From Enterobacteria phage vB_EcoS_Rogue1, in the sequence record NC_019718.1: a DNA stretch of 45,805 nucleotides; one strand, 5' to 3'. The notes under the pieces are model-generated. The model worked only from the letters and a program-made list of their open reading frames with translations, ran no database searches and was not told the DNA's origin. This document shows, one piece after another, positions 25,221 through 26,512 of the stretch. Each line of letters starts with the position of its first letter. Position 1 is the first letter of the stretch. The position numbers and the translations under genes are program-made.

Positions 25221-26192
25221 TTAGTAGAAGCTAGGAATAAATGGGAGTGCCATTGATATGTTTGTATCAAATGGGAATTGTGCGCCAGTTTGAGTTGAAT
25301 AGTTACCTATAACAGTACCAGGAACAGCTCTAACTGAACCGCCAGACATGCAAATACCCTTGTATCGTAAGTTATTATATCCACCAGTGACTCTAGTTGT
25401 CGCTCCACATCTAAGTATTGGGAAGAACCCACCATTCACTGACTGGTAACCATTATTAATCTGCATAAATCCACTTAGAACAAATGGCCTCCTGACGCTA
25501 GAGAAAACTATCTGCCCAGCGCTGTTTGATATCGTTAAACCTGGACCAGCTACTGGAGGTGTATTATTGAAAATAACTAACTGAACGTAAGTACTTGCAG
25601 CAACATCATCAATCCCATTGTATGTTATATCCCTACACCATATCGTACTACCATCACTTTCAAGGGATACGTTTGGGTTATCCCATTTACCAAAAGGAAT
25701 GCCGCCAACTGGCAATGATGCAGAGCCATTAACCTGGATGCCACCAACCCAAGCAGCAGTCATTAATCTGGAATTGCTTGATATCGCTGTAAAGTCAGTC
25801 GAGTTCTCAACAAGGACACCGGGGATTGATTGTGATGATGCTGGTAAAATCTCAAAGCACTGACCGCCAAACTGCAATATGCGACCATTAGCGCCGTTAA
25901 AGTTACTTAATGTAATCCTTCCAACCCCATCGTTAACCTTCGAGAACCCATTCATGTAATAAACTTCTGGTATAACATCATATGCATCAACATAAACAGC
26001 CTGAGTTGGCAGGCAGAATGCTGTTGAGCCAGGAGTCATAGTCAAACCGAAATCCCATGATGATGCTGGTGAGCTTAACCCGCTAGTGTTTATTGAACCA
26101 GTCACGGCTGGAACTCTCAAGCCAGCTGTGATTTCCATTGCTGGCCTTCCGTCATTCAAATCTATCAAGATACCTTGAGGCATTATTTCCAC
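25221..26192 (-). CDS. putative tail fiber / receptor-binding protein
   Basis: 323 aa, Gly/Asn/Ser/Thr-rich; co-transcribed downstream of the lipoprotein gene; no catalytic motif recognised. Confidence 0.45.
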
Positions 26193-26428
26193 TCCTTTGA
26201 GCCGTGATCTGCAACTGAGCCGCCGTAGCCTCCACCAACCTTTGGCTCAATACCAGCATAACGAATATCAACCTCTCCAGCTGGAACAACTACGCCACCC
26301 TTCCATTTAGCTACGCATACACCAGAGGCCTGAGTTGCACACCATCCGTCAGGTCGCGGGCCAGAAGAACAACCTACTGTCATGATTACTGCTGCTGCGA
26401 TGATTGCTGATTTGATGAAGTTAGTCAT
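26183..26428 (-). CDS. small lipoprotein, candidate superinfection-exclusion protein (Llp/Cor-like)
   Basis: Start refined to [20 protein letters not shown]: signal peptide with lipobox-like TVGC; 81 aa; adjacent to a tail protein gene as in T5 llp-oad. Confidence 0.55.
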
Positions 26429-26468
26429 TTTGTATTCCTTAGTAAGTATGTTTCGTTTCGATGGAGTA

Positions 26469-26512
26469 ACTATAGCAAAGGCTGCCGCGGTAGTCTTTAG
26501 CAAATCGTGCTA
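26469..26512 (-). promoter_or_regulatory. palindromic box (26498-26512, TAGCA-AATCG-TGCTA) plus -10 TATAGT (complement of 26469-26474) and leader CATCGAAACGAAAC
   Basis: Box family member in minus orientation, driving the lipoprotein and tail protein genes. Confidence 0.55.

Follow-up and report, generated by a model that had tools for sequence, protein, structure and literature searches.

Two genes on the strand opposite the tail operon of a coliphage raise the question of which molecule on the host surface they address, and whether both of them address the same one. The genes belong to Enterobacteria phage vB_EcoS_Rogue1 (NC_019718.1), and the stretch analysed here, which comprises 45,805 nucleotides and is called the window below, is a near-complete Rogunavirus genome (Drexlerviridae). 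A 25-kb stretch of the window is 96-98% identical to AHS24-like phages, and the nucleotides of the two-gene cassette itself are 98% identical to the Rogunavirus phages AHP24/AHS24.

An earlier note on this DNA had proposed that the cassette pairs a receptor-binding protein with a lipoprotein inactivating the same receptor, and had listed LptD among several candidate receptors. Characterised homologues of both proteins support this pairing (PMC8594841, PMC13035648, PMC12685063), and for both genes the receptor indicated by the homologues is LptD. We consider it very likely that the cassette serves a virulent Rogunavirus (a T1/Rtp-like siphovirus) as its LptD-specific module for host recognition, with LptD binding by these particular two proteins predicted from their homologues. 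The two-gene module of T1/Rtp-like coliphages, in which a tail-tip protein docks on LptD, the essential LPS exporter of the outer membrane, and a small lipoprotein binds LptD from its inner side to keep out more phage, is already known and is not new. What follows for the present phage is that a Rogunavirus of the AHS24 type would carry the published LptD recognition and exclusion module, its terminal receptor being assigned from sequence alone.

Organisation of the cassette

In minus-strand order the window holds a promoter element, the lipoprotein gene, the gene of the 320-aa receptor-binding protein and a hairpin that is shared with the J-like gene (Table 1). The two cassette ORFs are real genes rather than chance ORFs, because their Pfam matches are very strong (E=1.5e-38 and E=1.2e-138, respectively); a scan of both proteins against NCBIfam gave no match. 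The same layout, i.e., lipoprotein gene, 1-nt overlap and receptor-binding gene, convergent with J, is also present in Rtp, OzMSK and Bas14.

Table 1. Features of the cassette and its surroundings (positions in the window)
Feature	Position	Strand	Basis
Predicted phage-specific promoter element	26469..26513	-	repeated composite pattern, conserved in relatives
Conserved leader TACTCCATCGAAACGAAAC	26450..26468	-	directly 3' of the -10
Predicted exclusion lipoprotein gene, Rtp45 homologue, 81 aa	26183..26428	-	PF24052, PDB 9rps_D, lipobox
Receptor-binding protein gene, 320 aa, 33.7 kDa, DUF6453	25221..26183	-	PF20051, PDB 9rpt_C, AlphaFold2/Foldseek
GC-rich hairpin AAGCCCCTTTCGGGGGCTT, putative terminator	25196..25214	.	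between the convergent stops of the J-like and receptor-binding genes
J-like tail-tip region, presumed docking site	24674..25189	+	Pfam PF09327 Phage_Tail_Tip

As the earlier note described, the cassette and the tail operon are on different strands, and the cassette and the J-like gene (21764-25189) converge. The convergent stop codons of the J-like and receptor-binding genes are 31 nt apart and are separated by the GC-rich hairpin, which is probably a bidirectional terminator. The terminator scan calls this hairpin on the plus strand, the T-run on the minus strand being weak, and AHP24 has a terminator annotated on each strand at the orthologous site. Within the J-like protein, PF09327 is found at residues 971-1109 (E=1.4e-38). 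This region is the presumed docking site of the receptor-binding protein, whose attachment to J we infer. DUF6453 genes are also neighbours of J, or of a gene for a protein with the J tip domain, in other tail gene blocks: in the podovirus IME267 a protein with the J tip domain is encoded directly 5' of the DUF6453 gene, and in Oslo-type phages the DUF6453 gene directly follows J.

The receptor-binding protein

The second gene lies where the earlier note had placed it, but its product is very probably 320 and not 323 aa long. The longer form is the mechanical ORF from a GTG at 26192, and we prefer the shorter one because this GTG falls within the Shine-Dalgarno sequence AAGGAG, because the ATG at 26183, 8 nt 3' of that sequence, overlaps the stop of the lipoprotein gene (TAATG), and because every annotated homologue uses the 963-nt/320-aa form. 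The composition (G 12.2%, S 10.3%, N 7.2%, T 7.2%) agrees with the description of the protein as rich in Gly and Ser, but not as rich in Asn, which is no more frequent than in the J protein (7.3%).

The protein matches PF20051 (DUF6453) over 291 of the 291 profile positions (E=1.2e-138, 461.8 bits against a cut-off of 25). A sequence search of the PDB retrieved 9rpt_C, the Oekolampad protein on LptDE (E=8.7e-67), and the earlier suggestion of a structure prediction led to the same protein: Foldseek, queried with the AlphaFold2 model (pLDDT 84.7, pTM 0.83), returned 9rpt_C as its sole PDB match at E<=0.001 (E=1.2e-21; TM, normalised to the target, 0.90). The predicted fold is thus like that of a solved, LptDE-bound receptor-binding protein. 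Identity to the Oekolampad protein and to Rtp44 is only about 40-45%, so that contact details may differ from those of the solved protein. A closer relative is OzMSK_038, with 87.5% identity. Of residues 1-23 at the N-terminus, 15 show a conservation of 90% or more among 62 homologues, which is consistent with this being the end that attaches to the tail.

Several published observations bear on this family. Maffei et al. 2021 (PMC8594841) assigned terminal-receptor specificity, LptD included, to the locus that follows gpJ, and receptor specificity was again found to be tracked by this locus (bioRxiv 10.64898/2026.04.02.716166). Phage OzMSK is blocked by LptD loop deletions and did not infect two LptD loop-deletion strains (Black et al. 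2025, PMC13035648). Dunbar et al. 2025 (PMC12685063) describe the Oekolampad receptor-binding protein on LptDE by cryo-EM (PDB 9RPT). The published LptD loop deletions are accordingly predicted to shield production strains against a Rogue1-type phage, and cross-resistance is predicted with other LptD-dependent phages (Rtp, Bas01/02, Bas18, OzMSK). The earlier statement that the cassette sets host range holds for the terminal receptor, which the receptor-binding protein would determine, but is otherwise too broad. Strain range in such phages is largely decided by lateral fibres and the O-antigen.

The lipoprotein

The first gene encodes the 81-aa lipoprotein with signal peptide and lipobox that had been predicted for it. 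Its ORF runs from an ATG at 26428 to a stop at 26185-26183 and is preceded by the Shine-Dalgarno sequence AAGGAA (26440-26435). By a rule-based check of the PROSITE type, used here instead of SignalP, the N-terminus has a lipobox with Cys20 followed by Ser at +2 (Ser21), which gives a mature form of 62 aa and 6.3 kDa. The signal peptide is the sole hydrophobic stretch of the protein, with a 19-residue hydropathy peak of 1.76 in residues 4-22.

PF24052 is matched over 80 of 80 profile positions (E=1.5e-38, 131 bits against a cut-off of 27), and the PDB sequence search gave a full-length match to 9rps_D, which is Rtp45 (E=1.5e-35). Rtp45 and the window protein share 84% identity in the mature part, and their residues 20-43 are the same throughout. 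This identical part includes CATQASGVC, with Cys30, Cys38 and residues 30-35 all retained; the two proteins differ by a 5-residue Gly-rich insertion near the C-terminus of the window lipoprotein. In the cryo-EM structure reported by Dunbar et al. 2025 (PMC12685063; PDB 9RPS), Rtp45, the one protein of its kind for which this binding is shown, sits on the periplasmic face of LptDE, and its residues 30-35 form a beta-sheet with residues 318-323 of LptD; the window protein retains this strand. The exclusion mechanism is given there as steric displacement of the LptD loop EL4 through the barrel lumen, and, according to the authors, AlphaFold3 modelled neither Rtp45 nor its LptDE complex correctly. 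No in vivo exclusion assay was found in the available part of this PNAS paper, and for the lipoprotein family as a whole we infer exclusion from structure. By analogy, the window lipoprotein would be expected to have an exclusion phenotype in vivo.

Predicted promoter element and leader

The box-type promoter recognised earlier at 26469-26512 is one copy of a composite element, although the sigma-70 scan is silent there. In the element, a spacer of 23 nt separates the box ATAGCACGATTTGCTA (26513-26498) from TGcTATAGT, an extended -10 whose hexamer occupies 26474-26469. Inside the box there is an inverted repeat, TAGCA-N5-TGCTA, centred at about -42. The composite pattern AAATAGCACGA-N29/30-TATAGT has four exact copies in the window, where none is expected, and with 1-2 mismatches permitted there are 11 clear copies, mostly 28-41 nt 5' of an ATG. 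These 11 copies have the box, the -10 and the downstream leader in common; most of them contain the motif tCATCGAAACGAa, which recurs in orthologous regions of other phages. The leader is probably the 5' end of the transcript. The promoter class of the cassette is that of non-structural genes and not that of the tail operon. All 11 copies lie outside the morphogenesis block.

The element is kept 5' of the lipoprotein gene in Rtp, OzMSK, CEB_EC3a, ESCO41, IME542 and DTL, with variation in the spacer and the upstream flank, and it is thus conserved across subfamilies. It has no -35 at normal spacing. A sigma-70 consensus scan of positions 25000-27100 did not call it and returned only a weak site at 26670-26643, near a promoter annotated in AHP24. 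As the scan missed the site, we discard the reading as an ordinary -35/-10 promoter and adopt that of a repeated box element.

A regulator of the box was sought by a Pfam scan of ten ORFs, which gave only a sub-threshold Cro/YdaS-like helix-turn-helix in a 157-aa ORF (33864-34337). This ORF and a Rha-like protein (27017-27646) are candidates. In their description of the Rtp genome, Wietzorrek et al. (2006) reportedly found conserved inverted repeats for the regulator Rtp52.

Proposed function and alternative explanations

We propose that from the phage-specific, probably activator-dependent promoter (26513-26469) one leftward transcript would extend as far as the hairpin between the cassette and the J-like gene. 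Processing of the 81-aa prolipoprotein would cleave it and attach lipid at Cys20; Ser at +2 would direct the product to the inner leaflet of the outer membrane, where it would bind, like Rtp45, the periplasmic side of the LptDE lipopolysaccharide translocon. Its hairpin would be pushed up the LptD lumen and displace extracellular loop 4, so that incoming phages, as well as freed progeny meeting cell debris, would no longer be able to bind LptD. The 320-aa all-beta protein, translationally coupled to the lipoprotein through TAATG, is expected to stay in the cytoplasm and to join the tail tip.

The receptor could in principle be an outer-membrane protein other than LptD (FhuA, BtuB, YncD or another transporter), the divergence of DUF6453 having switched specificity. 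The low identity to the solved and first-assigned LptD binders would allow this, as would the distal loops, which according to Black et al. 2025 (PMC13035648) vary most within the family. We nevertheless regard such a switch as very unlikely in view of the close relation (87.5% identity) to the protein of OzMSK, for which dependence on LptD was examined with LptD mutants, and of an adjoining lipoprotein so similar in its mature part to the LptDE-binding Rtp45. That the 320-aa protein is instead a non-structural 'membrane protein' or moron, absent from the virion, is the reading suggested by the label of PHROG 1265 ('membrane protein; moron, auxiliary metabolic gene and host takeover'), by orthologues named 'membrane protein' in RefSeq records, and by a promoter class typical of non-structural genes rather than the tail operon. 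It is hardly credible to us for a protein in which no signal peptide or transmembrane segment was found (maximum 19-residue hydropathy 0.86) and whose homologues lie within the tail gene block after a J-tip-domain protein in Oslo-type phages and in IME267. The annotation 'membrane protein' is rejected on hydropathy and fold. Equally remote is a lipoprotein of the Cor/Llp type that inactivates FhuA or another TonB-dependent transporter and is unrelated to the receptor of the neighbouring gene. One GenBank record (vB_Ec-G8) does name an orthologue 'Cor superinfection exclusion protein', and T1 Cor gives a weak match to PF24052 that, at 17.7 bits, stays below the cut-off of 27. The similarity of the window lipoprotein to T1 Cor, however, is confined to 18 residues of signal peptide and lipobox; the PDB search at E<=10 brought up no Llp, although Llp is in the PDB (8A60); and the full-length match of the lipoprotein is Rtp45, solved on LptDE.

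A different matter is the benefit drawn from the same mechanism. The lipoprotein might serve mainly to spare new progeny from LptD in the debris of lysed cells, and not for superinfection exclusion, which we think possible but rather doubtful. The 2006 Rtp genome paper reportedly proposed just this protection of progeny for Rtp45. The phage is virulent (by taxonomy), so there is no lysogen to protect, and a debris role is named beside exclusion for superinfection exclusion factors in general in PMC12685063. On the other side, the role is compatible with exclusion, being the same molecular event, and the sequence does not separate the two.

Comparison with known systems

Rtp45/Rtp44 and bas18_0026 with the Oekolampad (Bas18) protein belong to the same two families as the window proteins (PF24052 and DUF6453), and gene order, 1-nt stop/start overlap and convergence with J are alike. 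The phages differ in subfamily, with Rogunavirinae for the window phage as against Braunvirinae and Dhillonvirus for Rtp and Oekolampad. The closest experimentally tested relative of the cassette is OzMSK_038/OzMSK_039 of vB_ecoS_OzMSK, which has the same layout and a lipoprotein 92.6% identical to that of the window; in both the promoter box is directly 5' of the lipoprotein gene. OzMSK differs upstream, where a DNA methylase gene is inserted in the same orientation, whereas the window has a 588-bp AT-rich divergent intergenic region 5' of the cassette.

The earlier note had compared the cassette to llp-oad of T5 and to Cor. The logic of the pairing stands, but the window proteins are analogues and not homologues of Llp, pb5 and Cor. 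The T5 genes for pb5 (oad) and Llp are likewise adjacent and encode a receptor binder and a small periplasm-facing lipoprotein of the outer membrane that disables the same receptor, yet without detectable sequence similarity to the window proteins, for which Pfam gave only PF24052 and DUF6453. We reject membership in the T5 Llp family, as no Llp chain was found in the PDB sequence search at E<=10. The T5 module targets FhuA, whereas LptDE, the predicted target here, is not a TonB-dependent transporter. According to PMC12685063, Llp exerts long-range allostery on FhuA while Rtp45 physically displaces loop EL4.

The Cor lipoproteins (T1, phi80, N15, HK022) share the exclusion function, but their receptor is FhuA. 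Like the lipoprotein gene of the window, cor of T1 is small, follows shortly after the J region and is read from the other strand; the T1 genes that lie between J and cor have the orientation of J and are of different families, with no Pfam match. Membership in the Cor family is also rejected, since BLASTP against T1 Cor aligns residues 8-25 only and the mature parts are unrelated.

Recombination and wider distribution

The two halves of the module do not diverge in parallel. Compared with Rtp, the receptor-binding protein of the window is 42% identical and the mature lipoprotein 84%; compared with pSf-2, the values are 69% and 37%. The identities are decoupled in both directions, and we therefore conclude that recombination has occurred between the two genes. 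Whether the halves are freely exchangeable between phages, and whether the module extends well beyond small siphoviruses, we consider evenly balanced. If true, one lipoprotein would be predicted to exclude LptD-dependent phages regardless of their receptor-binding allele.

Podoviruses of the Gordonclarkvirinae have a DUF6453 gene after a J-tip-domain protein and a PF24052 lipoprotein in a separate cluster resembling early genes, and the presence of both families there hints at LptD use. In prophages of Salmonella and Citrobacter, DUF6453 comes directly after J, and no PF24052 lipoprotein lies within 2.5 kb of it. Because DUF6453 and PF24052 occur in Gordonclarkvirinae podoviruses and DUF6453 in enterobacterial prophages, LptD may be far more widespread as a terminal receptor than in the published reports that we found.

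A literature search for the name 'DUF6453' yielded one unrelated mention only. Annotation lags behind: the receptor-binding family is DUF6453 in Pfam and a 'membrane protein' or moron in PHROGs and RefSeq, and the lipoprotein appears as Cor in a single GenBank record.

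The cassette and its gene boundaries

The window is a nearly complete T1/Rtp-like siphovirus genome. Over 25100-26700 it shares 98% nucleotide identity with Escherichia phages AHP24/AHS24 (Drexlerviridae, Rogunavirinae, Rogunavirus), and a 25-kb stretch matches this group at 96-98%. Two leftward genes convergent with the J-like (central tail fibre) gene had been described in an earlier note from the sequence, and both are present on the minus strand; Rtp, OzMSK and Bas14 share this layout. The 323 aa previously assigned to the second product stem from a mechanical ORF starting at GTG 26192, a codon that falls within the Shine-Dalgarno sequence AAGGAG, and every annotated orthologue is given as the 320-aa form. 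At the AHP24 site orthologous to the hairpin that separates the converging genes, a terminator is annotated for both strands.

Coordinates of the cassette, the repeated promoter-like element, candidate regulators and related podovirus genes
Feature	Position	Strand	Remarks
Lipoprotein gene, 81 aa	ATG 26428, stop 26185-26183	-	Shine-Dalgarno AAGGAA upstream
Receptor-binding protein gene, 320 aa	ATG 26183 to 25221	-	start overlaps lipoprotein stop (TAATG)
J-like gene	21764-25189		convergent with cassette
GC-rich hairpin	25196-25214		between stop codons of J-like and 320-aa genes
Element copies (last base of -10 hexamer)	26914, 28913, 36789, 37474, 38160, 39712	+	
Element copies (last base of -10 hexamer)	26469, 43701, 43899, 44862, 45696	-	
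Candidate box regulator, 157-aa ORF	33864-34337	-	Cro/YdaS-like helix-turn-helix, sub-threshold (24 bits, cut-off 30)
Candidate box regulator, Rha/anti-repressor-like	27017-27646	+	PF09669, E=2.4e-15
IME267 (NC_070983.1) gp019, "tail fiber"	2983-3951 of its locus		J tip domain PF09327
IME267 gp020	3953-4987 of same locus		directly after gp019; DUF6453 E=1.1e-25; 9rpt_C E=8.9e-10
IME267 gp095	2483-2782 of second, distant locus		PF24052 E=1.2e-35; 9rps_D E=2.6e-15

A predicted LptD-directed module

The N-terminus of the 81-aa protein satisfies the lipobox rule at Cys20, which is followed by Ser; the signal peptide is its sole hydrophobic stretch and the mature form has 62 aa (6.3 kDa). The protein matches the Pfam family PF24052 ("Phage lipoprotein") over its full length (E=1.5e-38) and a single PDB chain, 9rps_D, which is Rtp45 (E=1.5e-35). 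Residues 20-43 are those of Rtp45, including Cys30, Cys38 and the LptD-pairing strand, and the two proteins differ chiefly by five extra, Gly-rich residues close to the C-terminal end of the window protein. In the structure of Dunbar et al. 2025 (PMC12685063), Rtp45 binds the periplasmic side of the LPS exporter LptDE, sandwiched between LptE and LptM. There it carries a Cys30-Cys38 disulfide and pairs a strand (residues 30-35) with LptD 318-323. Its hairpin extends upward inside the lumen and shifts extracellular loop 4 by as much as 20 Å, which prevents the phage protein from binding. The paper gives structures, and an in vivo exclusion assay for Rtp45 was not found in its searchable text.

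The 320-aa protein is a full-length member of the Pfam family DUF6453 (E=1.2e-138) and has neither a signal peptide nor a hydrophobic segment. Its sole match in a PDB sequence search is 9rpt_C (E=8.7e-67), the receptor-binding protein of phage Oekolampad inserted into open-state LptDE. The AlphaFold2 model (62 homologues; pLDDT 84.7, pTM 0.83) is all-beta and leads to the same chain in Foldseek (E=1.2e-21, TM 0.90 normalised to target), with no other PDB match at E<=0.001. Among the first 23 residues, 15 are at least 90% conserved across the 62 homologues, and this segment is modelled with low confidence. Both properties fit the published view of a tail-anchoring N-terminal "base" that becomes disordered once detached. 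The closest directly tested relative is OzMSK_038 (87.5% identity), and two LptD loop-deletion strains resist OzMSK (PMC13035648). RefSeq labels the orthologues "membrane protein", and PHROG 1265 reads "moron / membrane protein".

In Drexlerviridae, Dhillonvirus and Queuovirinae, a variable locus directly downstream of gpJ tracks terminal-receptor specificity; resistant mutants revealed LptD as a receptor, and LptD was predicted for Rtp (Maffei et al. 2021, PMC8594841). A 2026 preprint (10.64898/2026.04.02.716166) ties each of four unrelated protein families to FhuA, BtuB, LptD or YncD and cites cryo-EM work for the receptor-binding protein and exclusion lipoprotein. Together with the solved homologues and the common layout, this literature supports the interpretation of a receptor binder paired with a receptor-inactivating lipoprotein, with LptD as the predicted terminal receptor. 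The suggested parallel with T5 llp-oad and Cor holds as an analogous pairing but not as homology. The PDB search with the window lipoprotein retrieved no Llp chain at E<=10, despite the presence of Llp in that database; the resemblance to T1 Cor covers just 18 signal-peptide residues, and T1 Cor is sub-threshold on the PF24052 profile. The mechanisms likewise differ, being steric loop displacement for the Rtp45 type and allostery in the T5-type system, according to PMC12685063. One public record labels a lipoprotein orthologue "Cor". The system is already known, with structures of homologues solved, and the remaining novelty lies in side observations rather than in the cassette itself.

Probable recombination within the module

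Identities of the two proteins are decoupled between phages. Relative to the window (25221-26428), the receptor-binding protein is only 42% identical in Rtp and 41% in Bas14, where the mature lipoprotein reaches 84% and 88%; in pSf-2 the values are 69% and 37%. Since the decoupling runs in both directions, rate differences alone are insufficient, which points to recombination between the two genes.

Near-identical coliphage modules also occur in the records of Pseudomonas phage PsgS01F and Campylobacter phage A121, probably through misattributed hosts or contaminants; PsgS01F and E. coli phage UALMA_PCEc3 are both 44,679 bp.

A repeated promoter-like element

A sigma-70 consensus scan did not pick up the promoter proposed at 26469-26512, but this stretch is one copy of a repeated promoter-like element. 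The pattern AAATAGCACGA-N29/30-TATAGT has 4 exact copies in the window against 0 expected, and 11 clear copies if 1-2 mismatches are allowed. All 11 have in common the leader tCATCGAAACGAa and the box ATAGCAC-N3-TTGCTAAA, which is followed after about 23 nt by a TATAGT-like -10; an inverted repeat, TAGCA-N5-TGCTA, is centred near -42 within the box. Most copies lie 28-41 nt from the downstream ATG, and the one before the lipoprotein gene has an extended -10 (TGcTATAGT). Apart from the cassette copy, all are located at 26.9-45.7 kb, and the morphogenesis block (555-25189) contains none.

Upstream of the lipoprotein gene the element is kept in Rtp, OzMSK, CEB_EC3a, ESCO41, IME542 and DTL, among which spacer and upstream flank differ; the OzMSK copy is situated where an inserted methylase gene ends. 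At this position it is absent from Bas14 and pSf-2-type phages. The element looks like an activator-dependent class of phage promoter for non-structural genes. On this reading, the exclusion protein and receptor-binding protein would be produced jointly, either before the tail operon or separately from it. Similar repeats were reportedly described in the Rtp genome paper for the regulator Rtp52. Candidate regulators of the box are listed in the table, the anti-repressor-like one in a phage that is virulent. In AHP24, an inserted HNH endonuclease gene separates the recombination gene's box promoter from the exodeoxyribonuclease VIII gene (region compared, 9764-10237 of its locus); the window at 28886-28943 lacks this insertion.

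Relatives beyond small siphoviruses

DUF6453 genes of ~47% identity occur in Salmonella and Citrobacter prophages and in phages of the Salmonella phage vB_SosS_Oslo type, co-directional with J, immediately after it and before a tail-fibre gene (e.g. 2486-3460 of one locus). Within 2.5 kb of these genes no PF24052 homologue was found; an exclusion gene may lie at another site, have been replaced, or be missing. Gordonclarkvirinae podoviruses possess both families in separate loci, their DUF6453 gene coming straight after a "tail fiber" gene whose product has the J tip domain PF09327. An example is IME267, whose gp095 has the lipobox LTGC and is surrounded by small early-type ORFs. A link between LptD and these podoviruses was not found in the searchable literature. 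The presence of both families suggests that LptD may be the terminal receptor of these O-antigen-dependent phages.
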